From assembly GCF_000389635.1 (NCBI RefSeq), contig NC_021182.1, positions 3,613,925-3,637,924 on the forward strand: 24,000 bases of DNA, read 5' to 3'. Position 1 is the first letter of the stretch. The number at the start of each line of letters is the position of its first letter. A model generated the notes under the pieces. The model was not told the DNA's origin. It made no database searches and worked only from the letters and a program-made list of their open reading frames with translations. This document shows positions 2,266-21,662 of the stretch, in pieces. Position numbers and translations under genes: made by a program. Source of the stretch: Clostridium pasteurianum BC1. GTDB lineage: Bacteria; Bacillota; Clostridia; Clostridiales; Clostridiaceae.

Positions 2266-2330
2266 ATAAAACAGTAACAATTTCTAAACACAAAAATAGG
2301 TTGATAACCAGTCTAAGGAGGAACAGGATA

Positions 2331-3389
2331 TTGAATAAAAAAGCGGTGTCTATCGTTATGATGTTAGTATTAACTATCACCATAAGCAGTAATGCATTTG
2401 CTGCACCGACCACTGATGAATCAGCTGAACTAAAACAAACTCAAGATAATAAGAAACAAATACAGGGAAAAGTTAATACTTTAAATAAACAAATCGATGA
2501 TATTATAAAAAGTGTCGATAAAAACAAAAGTGATATGAATAAAATTGATGAGAATATCAAAAGTACAGAAGCTAAATTGAAAGATCTAGAGGAGCACTCA
2601 AAAGAGCAGGATGACTTATTTAAAAAGAGGCTGAGAGCGCTATATATAAGTGGTGGCGGCAGTAACTATTTGGACGTAATTCTAGGTTCTAAAACTTTGA
2701 GTGATTTCATATCATCTGTAGATTCAATCTCTACAATAATGAAATACGATAATAATCTTGCTTCTCAGCTACAGGAACAGAAGGATACCATAACAAAGCA
2801 AAAAGATGCTTTGAATTATGAAAACAACAGATTATCAGCTTTAAAATCAAGTAATGAAGCTACTCTAGCTAATCTAAGTAATGATATAAAACAACAAAAT
2901 CAATTGCTTGCTCAAGCCACTTCAAAAGAAAATACTTTAATAGCACAACAAAAAGCAGAAGAAGCTGCTGCACAAGCCGCAGAAAAGGCAAGAGAATTAG
3001 CAGCACAGCAAGCTGCAAACGCATCTAAACAAATAGCTAGCAACAATCCTAATAGTACAAGTTCCCCTATTGCAATAAATCGTGGTGGTTCCTCTCCAAT
3101 AGGATTCTCAAAAGTACTAGATATGGAAGCTACTGCTTATTCAGATGATGGTTTTACTGCAAGTGGTTATAGAACAAGCAGAAATCCAAATGGCTACAGT
3201 ACTATAGCCGTAGATCCTAGAGTAATACCTTTAGGTTCTAAAGTATACGTAGAAGGTTATGGATATGCTATTGCCTGTGATACCGGTGGTGCTATTCAGG
3301 GAAATATAATAGACTTATTTCTACCTTCAAATGATGAGGCAAATAATTGGGGCAGAAGATCTGTAAAAGTTTATATTGTTGGAAATTAA
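2331..3389 (+). CDS. secreted coiled-coil / 3D-domain cell-wall protein (YocH/YabE/YuiC-like, MltA-type double-psi barrel)
   Basis: The ORF-track frame opens at 2301. TAAGGAGGA sits 8 nt before the in-frame TTG at 2331, giving a signal peptide (M)NKKAVSIVMMLVLTITISSNAFA|AP. The N-terminal ~200 aa are heptad-rich coiled coil followed by an Ala/Gln-rich linker. The C-terminus MEATAYSDDGFTASGYRT...IAVDPRVIPLGSKVYVEGYGYAIACDTGGAIQGNIIDLF is a typical 3D domain. Confidence 0.85.
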   Translation: MNKKAVSIVMMLVLTITISSNAFAAPTTDESAELKQTQDNKKQIQGKVNTLNKQIDDIIKSVDKNKSDMNKIDENIKSTEAKLKDLEEHSKEQDDLFKKRLRALYISGGGSNYLDVILGSKTLSDFISSVDSISTIMKYDNNLASQLQEQKDTITKQKDALNYENNRLSALKSSNEATLANLSNDIKQQNQLLAQATSKENTLIAQQKAEEAAAQAAEKARELAAQQAANASKQIASNNPNSTSSPIAINRGGSSPIGFSKVLDMEATAYSDDGFTASGYRTSRNPNGYSTIAVDPRVIPLGSKVYVEGYGYAIACDTGGAIQGNIIDLFLPSNDEANNWGRRSVKVYIVGN

Positions 3390-3598: not shown

Positions 3599-4747
3599 TC
3601 AAGCACTAATAACACTATTGTTCTTTTTGCTAATTAAAACGTCATTATAATTATCCATAAGCCCATGAAAAACTTTATTCCATGATCTATTTAATCCAGT
3701 GTTCCTGCCATTTATCTTTAATGTATTCCTTAAATCTTTATTTTGAATTAATTCTGCCATAGAGTTAATTAGTTCGTTAACATTCCTTGCCTTAAACTTA
3801 AGACCATTAACTCCATGTTTAATAATCTCTTTAACTCCACCAGCATCAGCACCTATAACTGGAATACCAGAAGCCATAGCTTCAAGTACTACATTCCCAA
3901 AGGTTTCTGTAGAGGAAGGAAAAACAAAAACATCACTAGATGCATAAATTTGTGCCAATTCTTTTCCCTTCTTAAAGCCAGTAAATATGGTACCTTTAGG
4001 AAAATCATTCTTACACTTTTCTAAGTATGGACCTTCTCCAGTTATAATGAGAGCTATCTTATCTCTATATTTCTCAAAAATTTCTTTATAAGCATCAATT
4101 AAAATATCTAAATCCTTCTCAGGTGAAACTCTTCCTACATATAAAAACACTAATTTATCATTGATACCAAGCTGATTCCTTAACTCTTCACTTCTTAGCT
4201 TTGGATTGAAGCTTTTAGAATCTATACCTCTTGAAAAAATACCTGTATTTGATATTCCTTCCTTTTTAAGAGACCTTCTTATTTCCTCTGATGGACATAA
4301 AGTTAAATCATTTTGATTGTGAAACCATCTCATATAATTCCATATATAATTATTTAAAAAATCTAAATTATAATAATTTAAGTACTGTGAAAAATTGGTT
4401 GTATAATTAGAAATAGTTGGTATTCCATGTTTTTTTCCATACCTCAATCCTGCTCTCCCTATGTTAAACTCAGTCATAATTTGTATTATATCTGGTTTAA
4501 AACTAGACAATGAGGTATTTAATCTAAATGCATTTGGAAAAGCTATTCTACATTCTGGATAGAGAAAAAATTTTATGCTAAAGAATCTTTGTATATTATA
4601 ATTTTCGTTCTTCCTTATATCATTATCTGGTGCGAATATTAAATATTCAATATTATTTGCTTCATAATATTCCATAAGATTATTTAAGGTATTAGTAACT
4701 CCATTTATCTGAGGCAAAAAAGTATCTGTAAAAACAGCTATCTTCAT
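3599..4747 (-). CDS. GT4-family (GT-B) glycosyltransferase, diacylglycerol glycosyltransferase-like
   Basis: N-terminus MKIAVFTDTFLPQINGVTNTL is typical of MGS/UGDG-like GT4 enzymes. EX7E motif ETFGNVVLE is present in FPSSTETFGNVVLEAMASGIPVIG. AGGAGGG RBS. The ATG overlaps the upstream stop (ATGA). Confidence 0.85.
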   Translation of the reverse strand: MKIAVFTDTFLPQINGVTNTLNNLMEYYEANNIEYLIFAPDNDIRKNENYNIQRFFSIKFFLYPECRIAFPNAFRLNTSLSSFKPDIIQIMTEFNIGRAGLRYGKKHGIPTISNYTTNFSQYLNYYNLDFLNNYIWNYMRWFHNQNDLTLCPSEEIRRSLKKEGISNTGIFSRGIDSKSFNPKLRSEELRNQLGINDKLVFLYVGRVSPEKDLDILIDAYKEIFEKYRDKIALIITGEGPYLEKCKNDFPKGTIFTGFKKGKELAQIYASSDVFVFPSSTETFGNVVLEAMASGIPVIGADAGGVKEIIKHGVNGLKFKARNVNELINSMAELIQNKDLRNTLKINGRNTGLNRSWNKVFHGLMDNYNDVLISKKNNSVISA

Positions 4748-5340
4748 ATTATCCCTCCTATATTTTTTGATAGTTTATAGGTTTCTATATTTTCAAATTC
4801 ATTAATATTAAAATAAATTATTGATTCTGTTACCATAGTGATGGTTGATAGCGCATAAATTATATCCGTCAAAAAACACCTCTTTTTTTGAAAATACTTT
4901 TCCTGCATATTAAAAATAATTGATACTACATTTCTTTGAGGTATACTTCTGCTATCAATTATTTTTAGTTTACCTTTTATAAGAAGAATTCTTAGATTAA
5001 CATGAAGAGCTATTTCATAGACTATATGTTTAAAAATATTTTTTTTATTATATTCTTCAGTATGATATATACAAAAATAGTCTGCTGTATAATGGCATAT
5101 CATCCCTAGAATCATTGAGAACTGCTTAATATCTAATTTATTATTAGATAATTCATTAAAATATTCAGACACAATACCTATACTATCCTTTAAAGTATGG
5201 GAACTTTTAAAGGTATCAGGAGAAATGTCAGGCTTAATATTTCCATACATAAAAATATTTTTGTTTAATTTAAAATTTAGTTCTTTTAAACAATGTTTAT
5301 ATACAATTTTAGAAAATAATATATGTGTATTTATTATCAC
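4744..5340 (-). CDS. zinc-dependent phospholipase C-like protein (small cytoplasmic form)
   Basis: GTG start 5340 with AGAGGGA RBS. H83-x3-D87-x5-H93-x11-H105-x3-E109 (HYTADYFCIYH...KHIVYE) reproduces the spacing of the alpha-toxin zinc ligands H126/D130/H136/H148/E152 (numbering recalled from the literature). N-terminal H6 and a KPD motif are also present. No signal peptide. Confidence 0.7.
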   Translation of the reverse strand: MIINTHILFSKIVYKHCLKELNFKLNKNIFMYGNIKPDISPDTFKSSHTLKDSIGIVSEYFNELSNNKLDIKQFSMILGMICHYTADYFCIYHTEEYNKKNIFKHIVYEIALHVNLRILLIKGKLKIIDSRSIPQRNVVSIIFNMQEKYFQKKRCFLTDIIYALSTITMVTESIIYFNINEFENIETYKLSKNIGGII

Positions 5341-5690: not shown

Positions 5691-8600
5691 TTATTCTGCA
5701 TTTTTAAGTGACTCTATCATATCTATTCTGTCAAATCTTCTATACATCACTAAATTCACTACAAAGGAAAACAATATTGTAAGCATAGCAGAATACAAAA
5801 GGTAAATTGGATTAATTGTCTTTAAAAACATCATTACATTTGTTTCTGCAGTACTTATTATAAGCCTATTAATGAGAATTCCATATATTATTCCTACTAA
5901 ACTACCTATAATGGTTAATATTATATTTTCCCTGTATATGTAAAATGCCAATTCATTATTGTAAAATCCTAAGACCTTTATGGTAGCTAGTTCTCTTTTT
6001 CTTTCATTAATATTTATATTTGTAAGATTATATATTACCACAAAAGCTAAAATTCCTGCTGATACTATAAGCACCAATACTACTGAATTTATACTATTTA
6101 TACCTTTATTAAAATTCACTTGAAGATTATTTTTAAAGCTTACGGATCCTATGCCGTCTATATCAGTTAATATTTTTGATGTATTATTTTGTGCACTGTT
6201 TGAAGTATCCTTTAGGAGTCCATAAAAACTATTAAATTGTATATCTTCTCCAGCGATTTTTTTATAGTAATCAGAACTTATATAAATATAATGCTGAACA
6301 TACTGCTCCGTTATAGCCGATATTTTAGCATTTATCACTTTACTATTTATGGTAATTTGAAAGCTATCCCCTATTTTTTTATTTATAAGTTTAGAAAGCT
6401 TTTCAGTAATTATTACACCATTATCTTCAAGTTTTAAACTATTGTTTTTCATAGTAAGATTTATATATTTATTAAGATTACCTTTGTTTTCAGGTACTAT
6501 TATATAAACATCTTCACTACCAGATTTTTTATTTACAGAAGCATTTTTTGAATAAGTAAATAGTATAGACTTCATATTATTATCTTTAATAATCTTATTC
6601 TTTATATTATTTTTTTCTCCACTATCTATACTTTTAATAAAACTAGCCTGCATATTATATTTATATATCTCACTAAACTGCTTATTCATAGCACCTGTTA
6701 TGCCTTCTTTAAGTCCAAAACCCGTTATCATCAAGCCTGTGCAAGCAGCTATTCCTATTACTGTCATAAAAAATCTCTGTTTATATCTAAATATATTTCT
6801 TGCAGTAACTTTTCTTGTAAAACTAAGTCTTTTCCATAAAAAAGTTATTTTCTCTAATAATATAACTTTACCTGATTTTGGAGGCTTTGGTCTCATTAAT
6901 GAAGCTGGTACCTCTCTTAGTTCACTTAAGGTTGCTGCTATAGCTGCTAAGCTTGTAAATAATACAGCTATTAAGGATGACTCTACTGCAAGTTTTGTGT
7001 TAAATGGTATTAATGCATAAGGAATTGTGTAAAGAGAACTATAAGCATTCATTATAAGTGGTGGAAATAATCTGAAACCAAAGGATATTCCTATTACACT
7101 GCCTATGACACTAGCTAAAAGTGAATATATTAAATAATGGGAAACTATAGCAAGTCTAGAATATCCCAGGGCCTTAAATGTTCCAATCTCAATTCTATTT
7201 TCTTGAACCATTCTGGCCATAGTTGTAAGACTAACCAAAGCAGCTACTAAGAAAAATATTAGTGGAAATGCCTTTCCTATATTATCAATTCTATGACTAT
7301 CCTGCCTGTAATTTTCATAGCCTACATTAAGAGTCCTTCCAAGCACGTACCATTCTGGCTTTTTTATATTCTTAATTTTATCTCTATTACGCTGAAGCTG
7401 GGCTTCTCCAGAGTTAATCTGTGAATTTGTTTTTGACTCCTCACTATTTAACCTTTGAGTATTTTCATCAATAATTTTTTGCCCCTCTACAAGCTGTGCA
7501 TTTGCGTCATTGAGCTTTATAATTCCCTCTTTTTTTTCTTTATTGAGCTCTCTCTCTGAATCAGCTATCTTTTTTTTATTTTCCTCAATCTCCGCTCTTC
7601 CTGCTGCAAGCCTTGCCTCTCCATCCTGTAGCAGCTTATTCTTAGCAGTTATTTGCTTCCTACCTGAACTTATATCCAAATAGGCTTTATCAAAAGTAAT
7701 CTTTAAACTCTTTATATCAAAATATTCATTAAGCTGTTTTACGGCTCCATCATTATTTAAAGCATCATACATATTGTCAAAGTCTTTTCCCTTTATGTCT
7801 TTCTCATAAATTTCATTTAAAGAATTATATTGCGCTATATATACTGGATTAATTGGTAAAGAATCCATATACTTTTTTGCTTCTGCCACTTTTACTTCCA
7901 TTCCTTCTGATATGCTAGCAGCAGCTTGCTGTTTACCTGCATTTAACTTATTTTCAGCTTCAGTAAGCTGATTTTTGGCCTTAGCAAGTTGTAGCCTGCC
8001 ATTTTGTATATCTACTGTATTTGAATTTATCTCATTCTCTGCAGCTTCAATTTGACTTTTGCCCTGAGATATTTGTTTTTCACCATAGGATATTTTTTTA
8101 TCAAAACTAATTTGATTTTCTTGAAACTCTGATTTTCCCTGTTCTAATTTGACTTTTGCGTCATCTAGCTGTCTATGTCCCTCTGCAATTTTATCTTCTG
8201 CTTCTCGCCTTGAATTTCCTAGTTTATCTTCCGCTGCTTGTATTTTATCATTAGCGTCCCTTAAAACCTGAGCATATCTTATTTCATTCCTTTTAATCCC
8301 TATACCCTCAAGCTCTTTTTCTATTCCGGATGTTACATTTTTATATTTATCATTACTTAAAAGACTAGCTTTAGATTCCTCACTATTACATCTCACATAC
8401 ATCTCTGTATAGACATCACTTTTAAAATCCTCAGGAATTATGTATACAAACCCGTTTACATCCCCATCTCCTACAGAACTCAGCTGCCTCTGAGCAGAAA
8501 TATACAGTGGTGACTCTGCTGTACCTACAATTTGAAATTCATTATTCTTAAGCTTATCTTTTATATCACTATCATTATCAGATTGAAGTACTATTTTATC

Positions 8601-9050
8601 ACCTATTTTAGATTTATATTTCTCAAGAAATTTTTCTTCAACTACAGCTTCTCTATCATTTTTAGCTGTTCTCCCCTTAAGAATATTTATTTTATTCATA
8701 CTATCTTCTTTGGGTAATGAATTAACATTAAGTACTATTGAACGGTTATCCTTTTCAACTACTCCATCCATAGAATAAGAACCATCTGCCTTTGTTACAC
8801 CATTTAACTTTTCAATTTCCGCTATATCATCTTTAGTAATGCCAAGGGTAGAAATGACTTTAAAATCCATAAGATTATTTTTATAAAAATAATAATCTCC
8901 TGACTTTTTCATATCCGGACTAGTAGCTCTTACCCCTGCATAAAAAGATACACCAACAGTTATGATTATTACTATTGATAAAAACCTTGAAAAAGTCTTT
9001 TTTATATCTCTAAATAAATTTTTTAAAACCGTCTTTTTCATAATTACCAC
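5691..9050 (-). CDS. ABC transporter permease, fused double FtsX/MacB-type with a large coiled-coil extracytoplasmic insert
   Basis: 1119 aa with an N-terminal TM (FLSIVIIITVGVSFYAGV). The extracytoplasmic domain has a ~300-aa heptad-rich region (about aa 250-560). Then come an FtsX 3-TM block (GKAFPLIFFLVAALVSL...), a second TM, a second extracytoplasmic domain and a second FtsX block. The start may be GTG 9050 or ATG 9041, which lies 2 nt after the ATPase stop. Confidence 0.85.
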   Translation of the reverse strand: MVIMKKTVLKNLFRDIKKTFSRFLSIVIIITVGVSFYAGVRATSPDMKKSGDYYFYKNNLMDFKVISTLGITKDDIAEIEKLNGVTKADGSYSMDGVVEKDNRSIVLNVNSLPKEDSMNKINILKGRTAKNDREAVVEEKFLEKYKSKIGDKIVLQSDNDSDIKDKLKNNEFQIVGTAESPLYISAQRQLSSVGDGDVNGFVYIIPEDFKSDVYTEMYVRCNSEESKASLLSNDKYKNVTSGIEKELEGIGIKRNEIRYAQVLRDANDKIQAAEDKLGNSRREAEDKIAEGHRQLDDAKVKLEQGKSEFQENQISFDKKISYGEKQISQGKSQIEAAENEINSNTVDIQNGRLQLAKAKNQLTEAENKLNAGKQQAAASISEGMEVKVAEAKKYMDSLPINPVYIAQYNSLNEIYEKDIKGKDFDNMYDALNNDGAVKQLNEYFDIKSLKITFDKAYLDISSGRKQITAKNKLLQDGEARLAAGRAEIEENKKKIADSERELNKEKKEGIIKLNDANAQLVEGQKIIDENTQRLNSEESKTNSQINSGEAQLQRNRDKIKNIKKPEWYVLGRTLNVGYENYRQDSHRIDNIGKAFPLIFFLVAALVSLTTMARMVQENRIEIGTFKALGYSRLAIVSHYLIYSLLASVIGSVIGISFGFRLFPPLIMNAYSSLYTIPYALIPFNTKLAVESSLIAVLFTSLAAIAATLSELREVPASLMRPKPPKSGKVILLEKITFLWKRLSFTRKVTARNIFRYKQRFFMTVIGIAACTGLMITGFGLKEGITGAMNKQFSEIYKYNMQASFIKSIDSGEKNNIKNKIIKDNNMKSILFTYSKNASVNKKSGSEDVYIIVPENKGNLNKYINLTMKNNSLKLEDNGVIITEKLSKLINKKIGDSFQITINSKVINAKISAITEQYVQHYIYISSDYYKKIAGEDIQFNSFYGLLKDTSNSAQNNTSKILTDIDGIGSVSFKNNLQVNFNKGINSINSVVLVLIVSAGILAFVVIYNLTNININERKRELATIKVLGFYNNELAFYIYRENIILTIIGSLVGIIYGILINRLIISTAETNVMMFLKTINPIYLLYSAMLTILFSFVVNLVMYRRFDRIDMIESLKNAE

Positions 9051-9748
9051 TCTATGCTTTCTATGGATACTGGATTTGGATTTTTTTCTATATTTTCAAC
9101 CTTACCACTTTTCACAGTTATTACTTTATCTGCTATTGGTGCTATAGCCGAATTATGAGTTATAACTATTACAGTCATATTATATTTTTGTGATGTATCA
9201 ACTAATAATTTCAGTATAGCCTTACCTGTATTATAATCCAAAGCTCCTGTAGGCTCATCACATAGTAACAGTTTTGGATTTTTAGCCAATGCTCTAGCTA
9301 TGGATACTCTTTGCTGCTCTCCTCCTGAAAGCTGTGAAGGAAAATTATGTAATCTATCTTTCAGACCAACATTTCTAAGTACCTGTACCGCTTCCATTGG
9401 ATTTTTACATATTTCTGCTGCTAACTCTACATTTTCTACTGCATTTAAATTTTGCACTAAATTATAAAACTGAAACACAAAGCCTATATCTTCTCTTCTA
9501 TATTTTGTTAACATTTTTTTATTATATTTACTTATTTCATTTCCATCTACATAAATACTTCCTTCGGTGATATGATCCATGCCTCCTAGTAGATTGAGTA
9601 TAGTAGATTTTCCTGCTCCACTAGCACCAAGCACTATTACAAATTCTCCCTTATTTATAGAGAAGGAAACATCGTCCACAGCCTTAATAACTACTTCTCC
9701 CATGTTATAACTTTTCTTCACATTTTTTAGTTCTATGAAGCTTCTCAT
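9044..9748 (-). CDS. ABC transporter ATP-binding protein (MacB/LolD/FtsE-like)
   Basis: Walker [10 protein letters not shown], signature [15 protein letters not shown], Walker [13 protein letters not shown] and the H-loop ITHN. GGGGAG RBS. Abuts the permease gene. Confidence 0.92.
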
Positions 9749-13036: not shown

Positions 13037-13079
13037 TTCACAATGTATAGATATATTGTGAAACAGCCCCTCTTTTTTT
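13032..13079. terminator. bidirectional terminator after the GGDEF/HD-GYP gene
   Basis: Stem GCTG-c-TTCACAAT (13032..13044) / ATTGTGAA-a-CAGC (13055..13067). The plus strand continues CCCTCTTTTTTT and the minus strand continues TTCTTAACTATTTT. Confidence 0.75.
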
Positions 13080-14766
13080 AATAATTAATATTATCTTTAT
13101 TTTCTTTAATAACTTCTATAAATGCATTAGCAATAGAAGGATCAAATTGAGTACCGCTGCATTTCTTTAATTCTCCCATTGCTTCGTCATAAGTTTTTAC
13201 CTTTGAATATGGCCTGTTAGATGTCATGGCATCAAAACTATCCACAACTGTCAAAGCCCTGGCAAGATAGGGTATATTCTCTCCTTTTAGGTTTCCAGGA
13301 TAACCCTTCCCATCATATCTTTCATGGTGATGTAATATTAGTGGAGAAATATTCTTCAGTGATTCAACAGGCTTTATAATTTCCACTCCATTTTCCGGGT
13401 GCTGCTTTAATATTTCCCATTGTTCTTTAGTCAATGGCATCTTTTTAATCAAAATTTCTTTTGAAATATTGATTTTACCAATATCATGCATATAAGCTCC
13501 ATATATTAGTTTTTTCTTATCTTCCTCACTAAGTTTAAGTTTATCTGCAAGTAATCTGCTATAAATAACTACCCTTTCAACATGACCGTAAGTATATCTA
13601 TCTTTTGCATTAATAACACTTATTAATGTCTTTATAGACGTAACAAGATCTATATGCCTATCTTCTATGTCCTCTTTTAACTCATCCAGTATAGAATGAT
13701 AGGTTTCAACTCTGTTTTTATTAAAGAATTTAGCTCTATAAAGTGCATCATCTGCGCTCTTTATAAGTTCAACATCACTCTTAGCTTTATCAGGAAAAGT
13801 AGATATCCCTATTGAGGCAGTTAGCTTCCCTTTTGGCTGATTTTCTTCACCATCAAAATGAGTCTCCTCAATTTTACATCTTATATTTTCAGCTATTTTT
13901 ATTCCATCCTCTTCTGAGGTATCAGGCAGTATAATAGCAAATTCCTCTCCACCATATCTTGCTGCAACATCCCCATCTCTCACATTGTTCTTTAACAATA
14001 ATCCTATAATTTTAAGCACCTCATCACCCTTTTGATGTCCATATAAGTCATTATAATTTTTGAAATGATCTATATCTATAAATATCAACGAAATAGGCTT
14101 ATTATCCTTTTCATATGATGTTACTTTCTCTCTTAAAGCCTCGTGAAAATACCTATGGTTGTACACTTCAGTAAGTCCATCTTCATTTGCCAGGCTTTCA
14201 AGTTTCTTGATATGGTCACTTTCAGTTTTTACATAGAACCCAAGAGGCCATGCTGTAAGTATAAAAACACCCGCCATTATCAAATCTTTTTCAAAATATA
14301 TATTTTCACCTGAATAGGGACCATATACTAGGTCTACTATTAATACTATGATTGAAGAAATACAGGCAATTATTACTCCTTGCTTTATTCCAGATTGTAT
14401 AGTCGTGGTTATTATAATAAATAAAAATAAAAATTTAAATTCACTTTTATGTGCACCTGTAAGAAATACAATAACAAAGAATATTAAAACAAATGAATAA
14501 TTTTCAATTATCTGAATTCTAGCAACGTATTTTTCATTAAATTTCTTAGTGGTAGAAAATGCCCATATAGAGTAAACCAGAGTTAATACAAGTACTCCAA
14601 ATAAGATTACATCTATTGTTAATGTATAATTAAAATTACTTATATTTATTTTATACTTATTAAAAATAAAGTTATAGAATCCCATACCTGAAAATAATAG
14701 CGAAGTTAATTTTACTACAGATACTATATCATTTATCTGCTTTCTTTTATTATCAATTTTATTCAT
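13078..14766 (-). CDS. membrane-anchored bifunctional c-di-GMP enzyme: 6-TM sensor + GGDEF diguanylate cyclase + HD-GYP phosphodiesterase
   Basis: About 180 aa with six hydrophobic spans. The GGDEF domain has RYGGEEF and an RxxD I-site (RDGD) five residues upstream. The C-terminal HD-GYP domain has HDIGK and HHERYDGKGYP. Confidence 0.88.
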   Translation of the reverse strand: MNKIDNKRKQINDIVSVVKLTSLLFSGMGFYNFIFNKYKINISNFNYTLTIDVILFGVLVLTLVYSIWAFSTTKKFNEKYVARIQIIENYSFVLIFFVIVFLTGAHKSEFKFLFLFIIITTTIQSGIKQGVIIACISSIIVLIVDLVYGPYSGENIYFEKDLIMAGVFILTAWPLGFYVKTESDHIKKLESLANEDGLTEVYNHRYFHEALREKVTSYEKDNKPISLIFIDIDHFKNYNDLYGHQKGDEVLKIIGLLLKNNVRDGDVAARYGGEEFAIILPDTSEEDGIKIAENIRCKIEETHFDGEENQPKGKLTASIGISTFPDKAKSDVELIKSADDALYRAKFFNKNRVETYHSILDELKEDIEDRHIDLVTSIKTLISVINAKDRYTYGHVERVVIYSRLLADKLKLSEEDKKKLIYGAYMHDIGKINISKEILIKKMPLTKEQWEILKQHPENGVEIIKPVESLKNISPLILHHHERYDGKGYPGNLKGENIPYLARALTVVDSFDAMTSNRPYSKVKTYDEAMGELKKCSGTQFDPSIANAFIEVIKENKDNINY

Positions 14767-14788
14767 ACTTTCACTACCTTATATTAAT

Positions 14789-14821
14789 CTAAAAATAGTA
14801 AGGCCGGTAAAACCGACCCCT
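14789..14821 (-). terminator. weak, strand-specific hairpin/attenuator between agrD and the GGDEF/HD-GYP gene
   Basis: The minus-strand RNA GGUCGG-UUUUA-CCGGCC forms 6 bp including one G-U pair, extendable by G-U pairs, followed by UUACUAUUUUU. On the plus strand the same position is a C-A mismatch. Confidence 0.4.
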
Positions 14822-14823
14822 CT

Positions 14824-14949
14824 TTACTCTTCTCTTAAGCATTTTGGTTCTTCTGGCTGATAAAAAAATATAAAGCATGCTGATGAAGCTACCACAGCAG
14901 CAACTACAGTTGCAACAGAAGCAAGCAAAGTTAATAATCTTTTTTTCAT
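14824..14949 (-). CDS. agrD: AgrD autoinducing-peptide precursor (41 aa)
   Basis: Not in the ORF track. ATG 14949..14947 lies 1 nt after the agrB stop, with AAGGAGG inside the agrB 3' end. Translation is MKKRLLTLLASVATVVAAVVASSACFIFFYQPEEPKCLREE. That is an amphipathic leader, a Cys-containing core and an acidic PEEPK tail, very close to clostridial AgrD as I recall it (C. perfringens ...TSACLWFTHQPEEPKSLRDE). Confidence 0.85.
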   Translation of the reverse strand: MKKRLLTLLASVATVVAAVVASSACFIFFYQPEEPKCLREE

Positions 14950-14950
14950 T

Positions 14951-15613
14951 TTAATTACCTCCTTTTTTAATTATTAATATATGATTTGAAAAAGCATCGA
15001 TTTTATTCATTGTGCTATGTCCAACTCTAGTAAGAGTAAATATCTGCCAAGCTGTACCTCCATATATGCATAGAGAATAAATCAAAAACCTCGTATCTCT
15101 GAAGAAAATATAGATAGCAACATTAATCACAACAATTATCATGTAAGTACTTAAAACAAAAGCAGACCATTTTTTCATCCTGATTTTTTTTTCCTTTGTT
15201 TTTATTGGTTTTGCTGGACTGTCTATCGGAGCTAATTTATAAATTAAATAATAAGACCATACAAAAATCACAATGCCTAGAAATAACAATAATTTAAGAT
15301 TAATTACAGAACCAAATAAATATAATAACAGCAATGCTTGTCCAATACAAATAATAGTACCTATAGTAGCACATTTACCTGGGGAACTTGCATGAGCACC
15401 ACCAGAATATTTTCTCAGTATGCTCCCCGAAAAGCAAACAATAAGTGCCTCTATTGTAACATGAAACATGAGACCAAAAATAATAACAAGAATTATAGAT
15501 AGAGCTATATGAATTAAAGCAAACATCCCATAGGCAATTATCTCTCTACTATTATTATCAAGCTTTAATTCTGCTGCAACTTTATTAGCAATATTATTCG
15601 TTAACTTTTCCAT
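14951..15613 (-). CDS. agrB: AgrB, AgrD-processing membrane endopeptidase
   Basis: 220 aa and polytopic. The conserved segment LRKYSGGAHASSPGKCATIGT carries the catalytic His/Cys pair pattern of AgrB. It lies directly upstream of agrD. Confidence 0.88.
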   Translation of the reverse strand: MEKLTNNIANKVAAELKLDNNSREIIAYGMFALIHIALSIILVIIFGLMFHVTIEALIVCFSGSILRKYSGGAHASSPGKCATIGTIICIGQALLLLYLFGSVINLKLLLFLGIVIFVWSYYLIYKLAPIDSPAKPIKTKEKKIRMKKWSAFVLSTYMIIVVINVAIYIFFRDTRFLIYSLCIYGGTAWQIFTLTRVGHSTMNKIDAFSNHILIIKKGGN

Positions 15614-16082
15614 ATGAAATATATTTCAACTCTTTTCTTTTACATAATCTAATATAATACACTATTACTATACAACCAAAAATCAGCAATGATGGGCTAT
15701 TATATAATATTTTTAATATTTGATCTCTAAAAAGAAAATTTAAATCTTTTCCCAATATAAACTGAAGAAAAAAAATATTTACTAATTCACATATAAACTC
15801 AAGAAGCATTATGACAATACATACTTTGATAGATTGAATAACAGGAAATCCATTTGCAAAAATTGCCAATGTAATAAAAACAATTAGGTTTAGCATAGAA
15901 TCTGCTCCATTTTCAATTGGAAGAAGTCTAATAAGATATACAATAACAGATAGTAATATAACGGAAATTAAGTATCTGTTTAATTGAATCTTATTTTTTG
16001 TAAAGGCATAAGCTGCTAAAAATAATAATAATCCCTCAGGAATTCCTCTCATTATAAATTCTAAGAATGATACTTTTAACAT
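15594..16082 (-). CDS. small polytopic membrane protein (about 5 TM), unknown function, co-operonic with agrB
   Basis: 162 aa. GAGGAG RBS. Its 3' end overlaps the agrB start by 20 nt. No terminator on either side. Confidence 0.75.
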   Translation of the reverse strand: MLKVSFLEFIMRGIPEGLLLFLAAYAFTKNKIQLNRYLISVILLSVIVYLIRLLPIENGADSMLNLIVFITLAIFANGFPVIQSIKVCIVIMLLEFICELVNIFFLQFILGKDLNFLFRDQILKILYNSPSLLIFGCIVIVYYIRLCKRKELKYISYGKVNE

Positions 16083-16153
16083 ATTCTTCTTCTCCTCAGT
16101 AAATCGTTAAAATCTTATTTTTTAAGACCAATATAAAATGTATTTTTAGGAAC

Positions 16154-16696
16154 TTAGTTTTTAATTTTATTAATGCTCTTTATGGTATTAAAAATAATTA
16201 TAAAAGTAAAAAGTCTTATAAATATGTCTCCAATACTTAAAATACTGTATCCTAAATCAATAGTATCAGTTAAAAATTTTAGTTTACTGGCTTCATTTCC
16301 CAGAACATGTATATCCTTAACTTTTATGAAGACATCCGGTTTAACATAACCGGTTAAATATGATAATGTTGGAAACACAGGCATTTTACCACCATTAGCT
16401 GAAATTGCTATCTTATTTAGTATAGTGCCTGTAATAATGCAAGCTGACCCTATAATGGCGCTGAAATATTGTTTATATTTAATAATTAAAATTAAAAATG
16501 TACAGATATAAATGGGTTCTAATATACCAGCAAATTTTATAAAATTATAATTTTCAAAGAACACTGTCATATTTAAAAAAATATATATAACCATAAATGC
16601 TAATACAGGATATACTTCCCAAGACATAAAAAATGGTTTCAGCTTGTACCCTCTTATTTTTGCCGCCAACATAGCTATGAGTATAGTTTCTAGCAT
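16154..16696 (-). CDS. small polytopic membrane protein, unknown function (possibly DUF5317-like), first gene of the agr operon
   Basis: 180 aa. GAGGGA RBS 8 nt before the ATG. Carries the motifs NGGKMPV and SIGD in an otherwise hydrophobic protein. The DUF5317 resemblance is from memory and unverified. Confidence 0.75.
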   Translation of the reverse strand: MLETILIAMLAAKIRGYKLKPFFMSWEVYPVLAFMVIYIFLNMTVFFENYNFIKFAGILEPIYICTFLILIIKYKQYFSAIIGSACIITGTILNKIAISANGGKMPVFPTLSYLTGYVKPDVFIKVKDIHVLGNEASKLKFLTDTIDLGYSILSIGDIFIRLFTFIIIFNTIKSINKIKN

Positions 16697-16812
16697 AATA
16701 CATGTCCCTCAATCTTTTGTCATATTCTTAATATTGATAGTTTATTTTTATTAAATAATTTCATGTATAATTATAAGATTATGAACTTGTTATTTTCGCT
16801 CTAATTAGCTAT

Positions 16813-16821
16813 ATTATAACA
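16813..16821 (-). promoter_or_regulatory. extended -10 (TGtTATAAT) candidate promoter of the agr operon
   Basis: The minus strand reads CTGTTATAAT, with TATAAT at 16818..16813 and TG at 16821..16820, about 115 nt upstream of the 180-aa gene. The -35 is weak. Confidence 0.4.
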
Positions 16822-17097
16822 GTATTTTTTATTAAATGCTATTTCTTTTTTATTTTATAATACTCATTAGTGATTAATTTACTTTGATTTAACACTAGAT
16901 TAAAAATTTCACATAGAAATTGCTGTTTAAATTGCTAAATTATCCAAAAATCATGCTAATATGTATGTTAGAAATTATTATTAAACTTTTGCTTACGTCA
17001 AGCAAATATTCTCAGAAATCTTTATTTTTAATGTTATAGTACAATTGACCTTGTATAATTCTAGCTTGAAAACCGTATTGAATTTTTTTAATGAATA

Positions 17098-17778
17098 TTA
17101 CAGTTTCTTTAATTCTGCTACTTCTTCCTCTGTAAGATTACGCCAGTTACCCATATCTATACCATCAATTTTTATATTAATAATTCGAATACGTTCTAGT
17201 TGCACAACTGTATATCCAAAAACCTTACTCATTCTTCTAATTTGTTTATTCAGTCCCTGTGTGAGAATAATACGAAAAGTATCTCCTTTAACTCTGCTCA
17301 CTTTGCAAGGTCTTGTCTTAACCCCACAAATTTTCACTCCTTCAGACATTACTTTCATGAAAAAATCATCAAAGGGCTTATTAACAGTTACTATGTATTC
17401 TTTCTCATGTTTATTTTCTGACTCCAAAATTTTATTGGCTAGCTTCCCATCATTTGTCATTAATATTAACCCTTGAGATGCTTTATCTAATCTGCCAACA
17501 GGGAAAATATATTCTGGATAATTCATAAAATTAATTATATTGCTTTCTACTTCCTTTGCTGCCGTACAGGTAATTCCCACCGGTTTATTTAATGCAATAT
17601 AAATTTTATCTTTCATAGGAATAGGCTTATTATCAATGAGGATAATATCCTTCTCCTCTACCCATTGCCCCAGTTCACAAAGTCGCCCATTTACAGTTAT
17701 TCTATTTTTCTCAATAAGTCTATTGGCTTCTCTCCTTGAACAAAAACCAAAATTACTAAGAAGTTTATTAATTCTCAT
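17098..17778 (-). CDS. RsuA/RluF-family rRNA pseudouridine synthase with N-terminal S4 domain
   Basis: S4-like N-terminus MRINKLLSNFGFCSRREANRLIEKNRITVNG. The catalytic motif GRLDKASQGLILMTNDG is present. Confidence 0.88.
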   Translation of the reverse strand: MRINKLLSNFGFCSRREANRLIEKNRITVNGRLCELGQWVEEKDIILIDNKPIPMKDKIYIALNKPVGITCTAAKEVESNIINFMNYPEYIFPVGRLDKASQGLILMTNDGKLANKILESENKHEKEYIVTVNKPFDDFFMKVMSEGVKICGVKTRPCKVSRVKGDTFRIILTQGLNKQIRRMSKVFGYTVVQLERIRIINIKIDGIDMGNWRNLTEEEVAELKKL

Positions 17779-17943
17779 TTTAAAATATTATCCTTTCATT
17801 TCTATCTACGAATTATAAAACTTATTATATCTTAAACATATTACAAGAGGATTTAGTATTGCAATGTTCAATCTAATGCATGAAACTCTGTTTATCGCCT
17901 CAACTAACGTACATACAAAACCATAAATTAGTTTACACTATAA

Positions 17944-18039
17944 CCACCTAGTTTAAAAGGTCATGATATTTTGTCTCCAGAAGAAAAAGCATATATTGCT
18001 GGAATAATAGATGGTGAATGTACATTTTTTAATAATTAA
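17944..18039 (+). pseudogene. remnant of a LAGLIDADG-type homing endonuclease N-terminus
   Basis: The stop-to-stop frame reads PPSLKGHDILSPEEKAYIAGIIDGECTFFNN*. AYIAGIIDGE(G/C)TF matches the LAGLIDADG signature. There is no ATG, only 31 codons, and it lies just beyond the ssrA 3' end. Confidence 0.35.
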
Positions 18040-18053
18040 CAGTTTTCATATGC

Positions 18054-18089
18054 TAAAAAACCCACATTAAAATCACTTTTAATGTGGGT
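18054..18089 (-). terminator. Rho-independent terminator of ssrA
   Basis: Perfect 13-bp stem ACCCACATTAAAA (18060..18072) / TTTTAATGTGGGT (18077..18089) with a 4-nt loop. On the minus strand TTTTTT follows. It starts 10 nt after the tmRNA CCA end. Confidence 0.85.
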
Positions 18090-18099
18090 TTATCTTCAT

Positions 18100-18456
18100 T
18101 GGTGGAGGCGAGGGGTATCGAACCCCTGTCCGAAAATAGTAATATCTAAGCATCTCCGAGTGCAGTCTCCCTTTTAACATTCCCTCCATCAGACGCCAAG
18201 AGACAGGCTTCCGACTTTAGTAGCTTCATAAATCCCGTTTCTAGGTCAAAGCTTTCCTAGACTCGTTTCCCCACTGTCGACGCCCATCCTTAAGCCGTGG
18301 GACTCAAAAGGCGGACGTAGCAGACTACGCTGCTAAAGCTAAATTATCGTTTTTAGCGTTTATATTTAATCCCATAGTTTTTTGACGCGGGTCCACAGGT
18401 TCCCTCGACTCGCTTCCTAGGTACAACGTATCCCCGTCGAAACCAAGTACGCCCCC
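18100..18456 (-). ncRNA. ssrA: tmRNA (transfer-messenger RNA)
   Basis: The minus-strand 5' end is GGGGGCGTACTTGGTTTCGACGGGGATACG. The 3' end is GGGGTTCGATACCCCTCGCCTCCACCA, giving a T-arm, an acceptor stem with the G3-U pair, and CCA. The tag frame GCT AAA AAC GAT AAT TTA GCT TTA GCA GCG TAG (18357..18325) predicts AKNDNLALAA. Confidence 0.95.
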
Positions 18457-18673
18457 TTGTCATATTACCTTCATAAATATGAAAGTATTTATTGTAAAAT
18501 ACTAACCACTCAGTGGAACTAATATTTCACATTGCAACAAAGGTCATACGCAAAACAATAGCTTTCACAAATATATTAAATTTTTATTTGTTTATCAATT
18601 ACTGTAACTACATATTACACTATGTGCACAAGTTAATCAAGTATTATTTTTAAGTAAAATTTGTAAATTTTTT

Positions 18674-19147
18674 CTACTGTTTCATTCTTTCCTTCATTTG
18701 TCTGTCAATTTCTCTTTTTGCAGCTTTTTCTAACATAGCATCTCTTTTATCATAATCCTTTTTACCTTTAGCTACAGAAAGCTGTACCTTAACTCTGCCA
18801 TTTTTAAGATATAAAGATAGGGGAACTAAGGTATATCCTTTTTGTGAAGTATATGCCTCAAGTTTTCCTATTTCTTCTTTATGCAAAAGAAGTTTTCTCT
18901 TTCTAAGAGGATCTCTATTAAATATATTTCCCTGTTCATAGGGACTTATATGTACATTACACATAAATACTTCCCCATTATTTATTTCTGCATAACTATC
19001 CTTAAGATTAGCTTTGCCTAGTCTTATAGATTTTACTTCTGTACCTACAAGTTCTACTCCACATTCCATGGATTCTTCTATGAAATAATCATGTCTAGCT
19101 TTTCTATTTTCAGCTAATGTCTTATTAGTCTTACTCTGTTTAGCCAT
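18674..19147 (-). CDS. smpB: SsrA-binding protein SmpB
   Basis: 157 aa. [12 protein letters not shown]...GTEVKS...ISPYE...[12 protein letters not shown] is the canonical SmpB pattern. Adjacent to ssrA. Confidence 0.95.
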
Positions 19148-19271: not shown

Positions 19272-21542
19272 TTATTCCTCTTCATCACTTATTTCAGGTT
19301 TATACACATTACCTATATCTTTCACTGCTCTTGGAAGATGAATTTCTTCTATTTTCTCTTTTGAATCTAAATCTTCATTTTCTTCTAGTTTTTCTTCCGT
19401 TAGATTATTATCTCTAGCTTCATCTTCCTTTTCCTTAGGAATCTTAAAATAAATTTCATGAGAAGCTAAATCAACCTTTTGCACCTCTATTCTCACTTCA
19501 TCTCCAAGTCTATATATTTTTTTAGTTCTTTCGCCAATAAGACTTAAATGTTTTTCATCGTATATATAGTAATCATCACTTAAATCACTTATATGCACTA
19601 GTCCTTCAATAGTATTAGGAAGTTCTACAAATATTCCAAAATTCGTTACAGAAGATATTATACCATCATATTCTTCACCAATCTTATCCTTCATGTATTC
19701 AGCCTTTTTAAGATCATCTACTTCTCTTTCCGCTTCCTGGGCTACTCGTTCCATATCTGAAGACTGTACAGAGGCATAGTCAACAATTCCAACTAATTTT
19801 TTTGATCTTTCCCCATCTATTTTTCCATGTAGAAACTCCTTTATTATTCTATGTATCATAAGATCAGGATATCTTCTTATAGGTGAGGTGAAGTGGCAGT
19901 AATATTTAGCAGCAAGCCCAAAATGCCCTACACATTCAGGAGAATACCTTGCTTGCTTCAGGGATCTTAATAATAATGTACTTACTACGGCTTCTTCCTT
20001 TTTCCCCTTTACTTCCTCAATAATTTTTTGCAATTCCTTTGGATGAACTTTACTTCCCCATTTAACTACATAGCCAAGATTATGGGCAAATTCATTAAAA
20101 TGCTCCAGCTTTTCTGTGTCTGGATCTTCATGAATTCTGTAAACAAAGGGAAGATTAGTCCAAAACATATGCTCTGCTATAGTTTCATTGCATACCAACA
20201 TAAATTCTTCTATTACCCTATTTGCTACGGCCCTTTCGTAGGGCTTTATATCAATTGGTTTTCCCTGTTCATTTAATATAATTTTACTTTCTTGAAAGTC
20301 GAAGTCTATGGCTCCTCTATTCATTCTCCTTTTGTACAGAATATCGCATAGTTCACCCATAGCTATAAAGTCTTCATATAAATAATCATATTTTTTTATA
20401 GTTTCCGTATCTTTATCTCTAAGTATCTTAGTTACATCTGTATAAGTCATTCTCTCATTTGTTTTTATTATACTTTCAAATACATCGTGATTAACCACTT
20501 CACCACTTTTATCTATTTCCATAAAACAACTAAGTGCCAATCTATCTACTTTAGGGTTTAAACTGCATATGCCATTAGAAAGTTTCTTTGGGAGCATAGG
20601 TATAACTCTATCTATGAGATAAACGGAGGTTCCTCTTAAAATAGCCTCTTTATCTAGTGGATTCTTTTCTCTAACATAGTTAGAAACGTCCGCAATATGA
20701 ACACCCAGATAATAGTTGCCATTATCTAATTTTTGTATAGATACGGCATCATCCAAATCCTTTGCATCTTCTCCATCTATAGTAACCATTTTAATATCTC
20801 TTATATCTTTTCTATTTTTATACTCTTCTTTTGGTATAGTATCTGGTATATTTTCTGCAAATTTTAATACATTATCAGGAAATTCCTCTGGAAGCTTGTG
20901 CTTTTTTATAATAGTCAGTATGTCTACTCCCTTATCCTCTTTTTTACCTAATATTTCAACTATTTTACCTTCTGGATTTCTTCTCTTTTCTGGCCATTCT
21001 ATTACTTCTGCAATAACTACATCTCCTGTTTGGGCTTTTCCCTTAACACTCTTAGGTATAAATACATCCTGGTGTATTCTAACATCATCAGGAACTACAA
21101 AGCCAAAATTTTTACTATCTTCATATACTCCTATTATGGTCTTATTAGCTCTTTCCAATATTCTTATTATTTCACCTTCACATTTTTTCCCACCATTTTC
21201 TTCTCTTGTTATCTTAGCTACTACTCTATCTCCATTCATAGCTCCATTCATAAAAGAACTGGGTATAAAAATATCCGGTCTTTCCAGTTCACATATTACA
21301 AAACCAAACCCCTTGGCATTTCCTTGAAGTTTACCTACTACAAGTCCCATTCTCTCTGGTATACCATAATGTTTTGTCCTATTTTTAACAATAAGTCCTT
21401 CTTGCTCCATATCATTTAAAAGCTTCTTAAAATTATTTGTTTCTGATTTTCTGATATCAAATATTCTTGAAAGCTCTAATATATCCATAGGCTTATATGC
21501 TTGTTCTCGCATAAATGGCACTATCATTTCTCTTAAATTCAT
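19272..21542 (-). CDS. rnr: ribonuclease R
   Basis: HTH/cold-shock N-terminal domains. The RNB core has DGEDAKDLDDAVS and TSPIRRYPDL, and there is a C-terminal S1 domain (GIISSVTNFGIFVEL) plus an acidic tail. The ORF track opens at TTG 21560, but ATG 21542 (MNLREMIV...) has GGAG 9 nt upstream and is preferred. Confidence 0.93.
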   Translation of the reverse strand: MNLREMIVPFMREQAYKPMDILELSRIFDIRKSETNNFKKLLNDMEQEGLIVKNRTKHYGIPERMGLVVGKLQGNAKGFGFVICELERPDIFIPSSFMNGAMNGDRVVAKITREENGGKKCEGEIIRILERANKTIIGVYEDSKNFGFVVPDDVRIHQDVFIPKSVKGKAQTGDVVIAEVIEWPEKRRNPEGKIVEILGKKEDKGVDILTIIKKHKLPEEFPDNVLKFAENIPDTIPKEEYKNRKDIRDIKMVTIDGEDAKDLDDAVSIQKLDNGNYYLGVHIADVSNYVREKNPLDKEAILRGTSVYLIDRVIPMLPKKLSNGICSLNPKVDRLALSCFMEIDKSGEVVNHDVFESIIKTNERMTYTDVTKILRDKDTETIKKYDYLYEDFIAMGELCDILYKRRMNRGAIDFDFQESKIILNEQGKPIDIKPYERAVANRVIEEFMLVCNETIAEHMFWTNLPFVYRIHEDPDTEKLEHFNEFAHNLGYVVKWGSKVHPKELQKIIEEVKGKKEEAVVSTLLLRSLKQARYSPECVGHFGLAAKYYCHFTSPIRRYPDLMIHRIIKEFLHGKIDGERSKKLVGIVDYASVQSSDMERVAQEAEREVDDLKKAEYMKDKIGEEYDGIISSVTNFGIFVELPNTIEGLVHISDLSDDYYIYDEKHLSLIGERTKKIYRLGDEVRIEVQKVDLASHEIYFKIPKEKEDEARDNNLTEEKLEENEDLDSKEKIEEIHLPRAVKDIGNVYKPEISDEEE

Positions 21543-21662
21543 AATTTCAACTCCATTCAAAATAATATATATCTTAATTTTTAACTATTAAAGATATAAT
21601 ATTCATAAATAATTATATTTTTAGACCTAATTAGTAAATTTTATAAAATTAATTTCTATAAT

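Follow-up and report, generated by a model that had tools for sequence, protein, structure and literature searches.

A hypervariable six-helix membrane module encoded beside agrD is a candidate thiolactone peptide sensor with c-di-GMP or kinase output in clostridia

A self-contained five-gene agr-type module, typical of Clostridium sensu stricto, is encoded on the minus strand of a 24,000-nt stretch of the Clostridium pasteurianum BC1 genome (NC_021182.1, positions 3,613,925 to 3,637,924; hereafter the window, with coordinates counted from its first letter). In order, its open reading frames (ORFs) specify a DUF5317 membrane protein (180 aa), a second membrane protein (162 aa; p162), AgrB (220 aa), AgrD (41 aa), and a 562-aa protein in which six transmembrane (TM) helices precede a GGDEF and an HD-GYP domain. 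We put the probability at roughly 0.55 that the six-helix (6TM) module, together with p162, is the cognate sensor of the autoinducing peptide (AIP) derived from the adjacent AgrD, here controlling the turnover of cyclic di-GMP (c-di-GMP). By the proposed mechanism, AgrB would turn AgrD into a very hydrophobic thiolactone peptide with the predicted ring CFIFF, and the product of the gene after agrD, a six-helix protein unrelated in sequence to AgrC and probably working jointly with p162, would be the cognate membrane sensor. Since the module is joined to a GGDEF cyclase and an HD-GYP phosphodiesterase, both of them intact, peptide binding would tip c-di-GMP turnover toward net synthesis or net degradation, with no phosphorelay. 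The sensor would be expressed by partial read-through of a leaky terminator, giving much AgrD and little sensor.

The signal-production half of the block is a bona fide agr system. AgrB (14951..15613), the peptidase that processes and cyclises AgrD, matches PF04647 over aa 6-194 (E 4.9e-42) with 143.8 bits against a cut-off of 23. The AgrD precursor (14824..14949; MKKRLLTLLASVATVVAAVVASSACFIFFYQPEEPKCLREE) matches NCBIfam TIGR04223 (E 2e-15; 56.5 bits, cut-off 19) and has a Cys five residues ahead of a conserved acidic C-terminal tail. Alignment to the ring of C. perfringens AgrD, CLWFT (table in PMC12312760), predicts a thiolactone ring CFIFF at AgrD residues 25-29 (14863..14877). Upstream, p162 (15594..16082), which matches neither Pfam nor NCBIfam families, overlaps the start of agrB by 20 nt at its 3' end (15594-15613), and the first gene of the block encodes the DUF5317 protein (16154..16696; Pfam PF17248, E 7.7e-26). 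A DUF5317 gene lies upstream in most related loci and downstream of the sensor gene in locus L082, and there is none within 5 kb in L040, L063, L067, L073, and L079; we regard it as an accessory part because its position varies and it is absent within 5 kb in some loci. A reading of the same DNA made without database searches (the sequence-only reading) had already described this minus-strand gene order, the sizes of the first two membrane proteins and the 20-nt overlap, all of which were recovered here.

The 562-aa protein (13078..14766; calculated mass 64.4 kDa), for which an exact look-up in the assembly collection gave no record, carries two complete output domains. Its GGDEF domain (aa 193-351; 13714..14190) covers positions 1-160 of the 161-position PF00990 profile (E 2e-47) and carries a GGEEF motif and an RDGD I-site, and its HD-GYP (HD_5) domain (aa 380-545; 13132..13629; PF13487, E 2.7e-37) carries HDIGK and HHHERYDGKGYP. 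Among 63 orthologues, GG[DE]EF is intact in every one, as are the HD and the GYP motifs, and an RxxD I-site occupies the aligned position in 46. Because the catalytic motifs are intact in all 63, cyclase and phosphodiesterase activities are probably both retained, and the protein is a candidate bifunctional switch.

The 6TM sensor module occupies aa 1-185 (14212..14766). An AlphaFold2 model of aa 1-196, built from a 42-sequence alignment (pLDDT 86.9, pTM 0.81), has six long helices (2-41, 47-72, 78-102, 109-125, 127-148, and 156-195) joined by very short loops, those on the outer side being only 5-7 residues long. This model and the Pfam matches bear out the architecture of six TM helices, GGDEF and HD-GYP proposed in the sequence-only reading. 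The module family is narrow: an exhaustive profile search through 1.84 billion representative proteins returned only 202 relatives. Among relatives of at least 440 aa, the outputs are GGDEF+HD-GYP (28), PAS+HisKA+HATPase_c (12), and HisKA+HATPase_c (9). The module has no significant match in Pfam, where the nearest family is 6TM_PilS (PF25323). The window protein scores 13.5 bits against it (E 0.06; cut-off 27); the best family member reaches E 8.8e-4 in one search, and P0090 reaches 28.8 bits (E 1.2e-6) in another, against the same cut-off of 27. A search of the module profile against the sequences of solved structures gave no matches.

Linkage of this module to agrD is conserved across species. 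A profile restricted to the N-terminal membrane domain was run against a single genome of each species; relatives were found in 122 species, the best 80 loci were retained, and their gene order was read by tblastn with the window proteins. The order DUF5317, p162, AgrB, AgrD, TM-GGDEF-HD-GYP recurs in essentially all retained loci, and in all 80 informative loci, each from a different species, the gene immediately ahead of the sensor gene is agrD. The apparent exceptions to the order are a contig edge (L008), a locus with an AgrD ORF directly upstream of the sensor gene but no agrB (L040), and a change of output domain (L073). Locus L040 (9261-11716) comprises p163, AgrD and a GGDEF/HD-GYP sensor, with neither agrB nor DUF5317; its AgrD (..SASACIWCSYQPKEP..) was missed by tblastn and recognised on reading the ORFs.

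The surroundings of the block are not shared. None of the nine neighbouring genes in the window neighbours the block elsewhere, save for one RluF match and paralogous ABC ATPases, and the 104 flanking ORFs of 19 related loci fall into 150 Pfam families, none of them in more than 6 ORFs. The block recurs in further different contexts in a metagenomic locus (L001) and in a C. perfringens-like locus (L091), and the linkage extends to Alkaliphilus and Fonticella. Because the flanking genes are not conserved while the block is intact, we infer that it is a unit kept together by selection. The neighbourhood survey suggested in the sequence-only reading thus finds agrD followed by a TM-GGDEF-HD-GYP gene in some 80 species with unrelated flanks.

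No AgrC- or AgrA-like partner accompanies the block. The flanks of the 19 loci contain no recurring two-component system, AgrA-type included, and a tblastn search of low sensitivity, run on all loci with AgrA and the AgrC kinase of S. aureus as queries, gave no matches. Within the 24-kb window, domain scans of the other 13 sizeable ORFs found none with a histidine-kinase, receiver (Response_reg) or LytTR domain, as the sequence-only reading had stated for histidine kinases and LytTR regulators. That reading had further proposed that the GGDEF/HD-GYP enzyme is used instead of AgrC/AgrA. Neither gene is indeed in the window, but replacement is more than 24 kb can establish, and VirS is a documented AIP receptor in C. 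perfringens (PMC7492741).

In several loci the gene beside agrD encodes the same 6TM module fused to a different output. In C. tetanomorphum, L073 has p165, AgrB and AgrD followed by a 6TM-PAS-kinase with no response regulator nearby, and L082 has AgrD, a 6TM-PAS-kinase and DUF5317. Of the three 6TM-PAS-kinases encoded in locus L088 (2887-7869), one follows agrB-agrD and each of the other two comes right after a p162 paralogue, p162 paralogues numbering four in all; in Alkaliphilus metalliredigens (L086) a 6TM-kinase lies ~1.1 kb from p156-AgrB-AgrD. The C. botulinum/C. sporogenes/C. tepidum group carries three p162+6TM sensor units within 10 kb (L009:12841-20591 in C. botulinum ATCC 25763; also L022, L037, L039, and L081). 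These are an agr-1 unit with DUF5317, p162, AgrB1, AgrD1 (..ACYWCVYQP..) and a GGDEF/HD-GYP sensor; a middle unit consisting of a lone pair of p150 and a 6TM-PAS-kinase; and an agr-2 unit with p155, AgrB2, AgrD2 (..ADSACVVGI..) and a 6TM-PAS-kinase. The agr-2 unit of L009 is apparently tandemly duplicated, with copies at 15396-18546 and from 18850 on that give identical tblastn scores.

Because the module, and not the c-di-GMP enzymes, stays beside agrD through duplication and domain replacement, it behaves as a cognate receptor with an exchangeable output would. The output swaps and the paralogues strengthen the suggestion of the sequence-only reading that a c-di-GMP enzyme may sense the peptide directly, an interpretation that overall is partly supported.

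That reading had overlooked the constant pairing of p162 with the sensor. A p162 gene is present in every GGDEF/HD-GYP locus with enough upstream sequence, and a paralogue stands beside the sensor in 6 of 7 informative kinase-form contexts (hmmsearch E-values of 1e-25 to 1e-41), the exception being L087, in which the sensor is alone, with neither p162 nor agrBD nearby. The homologues are always stand-alone proteins of 150-175 aa, and the window copy is 100% identical to an NCBI protein of C. pasteurianum. The AlphaFold2 model of p162 has five long helices (pLDDT 85), invariant polar residues are R12, E16, and E99, and comparison with Pfam, NCBIfam and solved structures (the last by a fold search with the model) gave no similarity to any family or structure. 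Every sensor paralogue of L088 and of the C. botulinum group is matched by a separate p162 paralogue, which we take as a sign of a specific sensor-p162 partnership, for example with p162 as co-receptor or modulator. An alternative is a part for p162 in AgrD maturation, by analogy with MroQ, which has a role in AgrD maturation in S. aureus; such a role fits less well with the p162 copies that lack agrBD alongside, as in L083, L088, and L089.

The peptide and the sensor each have a hypervariable part. In AgrD the frame SSAC-xxxx-YQPEEPKCLR is conserved, with C-xxxx-YQPEEP kept in the 63 orthologues. The four positions that follow the Cys are hypervariable: 63 species have 48 distinct cores, in which W, F, and Y abound. 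The mean difference is 70% in the ring versus 36% in the rest of AgrD. Per-column conservation places the hypervariable part of the sensor at aa 1-120 (14407..14766), with the least conserved region at about aa 30-62, at the outer ends of TM1 and TM2 and in loop 1; TM4-TM6 are nearly invariant.

Between sister species, sliding-window nucleotide identity falls in a sharp trough limited to the spacer after agrD and the first ~350 nt of the sensor gene. The trough lies at 54-67% against a background of 92-96% in L060/L046 (AIP cores WWAM/FWAM), at 54-64% against about 93% in L039/L037 (VWCV/YWCV), and at 56-70% against about 86% in L029/L019 (TWFS/SWFS); L009 and L037, both with core YWCV, show no trough. 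The three troughs, at about -100 to +350 from the sensor start, are abrupt and sharp-edged in loci with 85-96% identity otherwise.

At the protein level, the difference between L060 and L046 is 4% for the catalytic domains and 10% for AgrB but 48% for sensor aa 1-120. The nearest sensors to that of L060, at 22-23% difference, belong to other WWAM species, from which L060 is 21% distant in the catalytic domains, and the sensor of L039 (VWCV) is 52-58% different from those of three YWCV species that are themselves 18-29% apart. In these comparisons alleles of sensor aa 1-120 tend to cluster with those of the same AIP type and not with those of related species, and the troughs look like allele replacement by recombination rather than gradual divergence. 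Where the nearest neighbours by sensor and by catalytic domain disagree, the sensor neighbour is the closer in AIP in 19 cases and the catalytic-domain neighbour in 9, with 7 ties. Overall, we regard the covariation between AIP and sensor as suggestive.

The spacer between agrD and the sensor gene (14767..14823; 57 nt) contains a hairpin and then an AAGGTAG ribosome-binding site 8 nt ahead of the ATG. The hairpin, which the sequence-only reading had noted with its G-U pairs, was located by a terminator scan at 14820..14800; it begins 4 nt past the agrD stop codon, reads GGGGUCGGU-UUU-ACCGGCCUU, and is followed by an interrupted U tract (ACUAUUUUU). Its dG, G-U pairs included, is -11.6 kcal/mol. 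A hairpin occurs at the same place in all 77 agrD-sensor spacers (median dG -17.9 kcal/mol; median z versus shuffles -4.9), which have a median length of ~60 nt (50-140 nt). A median of ~19 nt separates the end of the hairpin from the start codon, with a GAGG-type ribosome-binding site closely following the hairpin. RNAalifold analysis of 67 spacers yields an 8-bp consensus stem with compensatory double changes at all 8 pairs; together with the U tract, this conserved G+C-rich stem-loop fits the pattern of an intrinsic terminator.

Because most of the spacers have no room for a sigma-A promoter after the hairpin, transcription of the sensor gene must begin ahead of the hairpin and run through it, and an independent sensor promoter downstream of the hairpin is unlikely; the claim that agrD and the c-di-GMP gene leave no space for such a promoter is thereby upheld over the 77 spacers. 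Leaky terminators are common after peptide structural genes. The simplest reading of the conserved structure is a leaky terminator that would set a high ratio of AgrD to sensor, with agrD and the sensor gene presumably co-transcribed.

Several results weigh against the proposal that the 6TM module is the receptor of the adjacent peptide. Of the statistics on covariation, the sign test on the 19 versus 9 neighbour disagreements gives p = 0.044 and counts non-independent cases (reciprocal pairs twice); a phylogenetically independent pair test of excess sensor divergence, comparing same-AIP with different-AIP pairs (n = 6 and 13), gives p = 0.29; and partial Mantel tests of AIP distance against protein distance, with catalytic-domain distance controlled, give p = 0.001 for all membrane proteins including DUF5317, and do not set the sensor apart from AgrB or DUF5317. 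There are also pairs, such as L030/L062, whose sensors are almost the same although their AIPs differ. Because these statistics are weak, the covariation is suggestive rather than established.

The similarity searches with the module are also unfavourable. A fold search against the PDB returned nothing at E <= 0.001 (best match ImcA, 8wcn, E 0.12, TM-score ~0.5; another weak match was the AC9 TM domain, TM-score ~0.5). The N-terminus had been likened to an AgrC sensor module in the sequence-only reading; the general topology stands, but no sequence homology was detectable, hhalign giving a probability of 0.7% for the sensor profile against the S. aureus AgrC sensor. Nor did hhalign relate p162 to the S. 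aureus AgrC sensor, or the sensor to p162. Furthermore, the sensor-p162 pair occurs with no agrBD nearby in L083-85 and L089 (L083:7509-9860, L089:1287-3430), and because of this the primary ligand could be something else; these copies would be orphan receptors under our model, or a sign of another ligand under its rivals. It is equally possible that the conserved terminator-like hairpin ends most transcripts behind agrD. Finally, VirS is a supported AIP receptor in C. perfringens (PMC7492741).

Much of this would suit an enzyme that is a co-expressed output and not a receptor, which we consider unlikely, though the best placed of the alternatives. By this account the gene would be read through upon agr induction (e.g. 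via an unlinked VirS/VirR), the 6TM module and p162 would sense another cue (membrane state, a lipid, or another peptide), and c-di-GMP would be reached via transcription only. In C. perfringens, VirS binds the AIP and VirS/VirR raises agrD expression (PMC7492741); the spacer architecture fits read-through; and both the sensor-p162 pairs away from agrBD and the weak statistics would be expected. However, it leaves unexplained why the TM module, and not the output, is kept beside agrD through output swaps, why each paralogous agrBD cassette has its own sensor paralogue, and why sensor alleles group by AIP against the species tree.

Somewhat less probable still is an intramembrane inventory control of the PilS kind, in which the module and p162 would keep watch on AgrB activity or on AgrD precursor or leader inserted in the membrane, and not on external AIP, and feed back on production via c-di-GMP or phosphorylation. 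It would account for the one family similarity of the module (the PilS-like 6TM domain PF25323), for predicted outer loops of only 5-7 residues, and for the constant small membrane protein partner. Nevertheless, the window protein falls under the Pfam threshold at 13.5 bits, the hypervariability of the sensor is located at the outer ends of TM1 and TM2 and follows the AIP ring residue, and the remainder of AgrD, leader included, is less variable than the ring (36% versus 70%). The last alternative, inherited synteny without function from a Clostridium ancestor in which the c-di-GMP gene neighboured agrBD, could draw on the origin of most loci in one genus-level clade but is strongly disfavoured and very improbable, since the flanks are completely reshuffled around an intact block, neither replacement of the output nor duplication of the cassette has separated the module from agrD, to which it is linked in Alkaliphilus and Fonticella too, and the spacer keeps a length of 50-140 nt and a conserved structure.

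If the 6TM module is indeed a peptide sensor, the consequences extend beyond C. pasteurianum. We see about an even chance that clostridia have a second, AgrC-unrelated family of thiolactone receptors, consisting of a hypervariable 6TM module with p162 and joined either to c-di-GMP enzymes (the window, C. botulinum agr-1) or to orphan PAS-histidine kinases (agr-2, C. tetanomorphum). In that case the 'orphan' agrBD loci would not be orphan, and in the GGDEF/HD-GYP form the peptide would be converted directly to a second messenger.

In C. botulinum, C. perfringens, and related species, toxin production and sporulation are governed by such loci, and the only receptor so far proposed for their peptides is VirS of C. 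perfringens, a proposal that allows for others. The 6TM family and p162 are concrete receptor candidates that adjoin agrD in ~80 species. If confirmed, this would be, to our knowledge, the first peptide quorum-sensing receptor with direct c-di-GMP output; in Gram-positive anaerobes it would couple motility, pili, biofilm, and perhaps sporulation to cell density, and it would account for agr phenotypes that are independent of known two-component systems. The natural allele swaps between sister species provide ready-made specificity experiments.

The operon promoter is presumed to lie in the intergenic region upstream of the block (16697..17097, minus strand). A promoter scan of this region found only consensus-type matches (17001..16974 and 16723..16695) that are no commoner than in shuffles, and an Rfam scan found no c-di-GMP riboswitch or other element, its sole match being the transfer-messenger RNA (tmRNA). 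The latter belongs to a trans-translation cluster just upstream of the block, made up of tmRNA (18100-18456, minus strand; RF00023, 172 bits), SmpB (18674-19147, minus strand) and RNase R (19272-21560, minus strand). An RluF-type pseudouridine synthase is encoded at 17098-17778.

Elsewhere in the window, a MacB/FtsX-type ABC pair consists of a 1119-aa permease with two FtsX domains and a MacB periplasmic core (5691-9050, minus strand) and a 234-aa ATPase (9044-9748, minus strand), the genes overlapping by 7 nt. A 198-aa protein with a zinc-dependent phospholipase C domain (4744-5340, minus strand; PF00882, E 2.5e-20) is far shorter than clostridial alpha-toxin-type phospholipases, and its gene overlaps by 4 nt with that of a family-4 glycosyltransferase (3599-4747, minus strand). 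The sole sizeable plus-strand gene (2301-3389) encodes a PcsB-like coiled coil with a C-terminal 3D domain, probably a cell-wall hydrolase.

With respect to known systems, the agr signal machinery is familiar, and no description of the receptor family or of its second-messenger output came up in the literature searched. The sequence-only reading knew of no characterised wiring of this kind, and our search likewise found no prior description: in full texts, agrBD or agrD was never linked to an adjacent GGDEF/HD-GYP gene or 6TM family in Clostridium sensu stricto, although the founding papers (Cooksley 2010, Ohtani 2009) lie outside the search and may hold a prior mention. In the same literature CPE1560 of C. 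perfringens is mentioned in a single paper and only as a landmark, and DUF5317 receives no mention.

The closest general likeness is to agrBDCA of S. aureus, with which the window block shares an AgrB peptidase, an AgrD thiolactone precursor, a polytopic sensor with short loops encoded immediately after agrD, and a hypervariable block that spans the peptide core and the N-terminal half of the sensor, comparable to the agr specificity groups. In contrast to S. aureus, AgrB lies outside the hypervariable block, two extra membrane proteins are encoded upstream, and a conserved hairpin separates agrD from the sensor gene. The reception half is, by the defining features, neither AgrC nor AgrA: the locus has no HPK10 kinase (AgrC, HATPase_c_5) and no LytTR AgrA, and the output is GGDEF plus HD-GYP.

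In C. botulinum and C. sporogenes, Cooksley et al. reportedly described agr-1 and agr-2 in 2010, and the window block matches agr-1. AgrD1 of C. botulinum corresponds to the listed AIP-1, and AgrD2 resembles the listed AIP-2 (a 2025 primer, PMC12312760). Reviews depict these loci as agrBD pairs only (PMC3406050, PMC9229411), and the agr sensing pathway of C. botulinum 'remains to be defined' (PMC3406050; likewise PMC9229411).

In C. perfringens, the agr operon is CPE1563-CPE1562-agrB-agrD, with agrD between CPE1561 and CPE1560 (PMC2706048); these four genes have the same order as in the window and are probably orthologous. Published models end the operon at agrD and assign reception to the unlinked kinase VirS (PMC7492741, PMC12828898). 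All five genes of the block, that for a 562-aa GGDEF/HD_5 protein among them, occur at locus L091 in a close C. perfringens relative whose AgrD is 84% identical to the C. perfringens one. Homology with this locus makes it very likely that CPE1560 encodes the GGDEF/HD-GYP sensor; in the sequence collection the AgrD of C. perfringens itself appears only as a partial sequence or on contigs of under 1 kb. An AIP pull-down in C. perfringens contained an unidentified ~75-kDa band, and Li and McClane leave room for further receptors (PMC7492741); that this band is the 562-aa sensor, with its calculated 64.4 kDa, is possible and is offered as a lead only.

The membrane input itself weakly resembles PF25323 and the TM domain of P. 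aeruginosa ImcA (8wcn), which likewise comprise six helices with minimal loops fused to signalling outputs; the scores are, however, at or below significance, and no shared ligand or genomic context is known. For the control of c-di-GMP by a quorum signal, the parallels lie in the Rpf systems: Burkholderia RpfR (PAS-GGDEF-EAL) binds BDSF directly, and Xanthomonas RpfC/RpfG conveys DSF to an HD-GYP protein. Both resemble our proposal in that a quorum signal controls c-di-GMP turnover, directly in RpfR and via an HD-GYP output in RpfG. They differ in their fatty-acid signals, Gram-negative hosts and absence of AgrB and AgrD, in the cytoplasmic PAS domain of RpfR, and in the phosphorelay to RpfG. 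By analogy, Burkholderia RpfR would be the nearest conceptual precedent for a thiolactone peptide that acts directly on a c-di-GMP enzyme.

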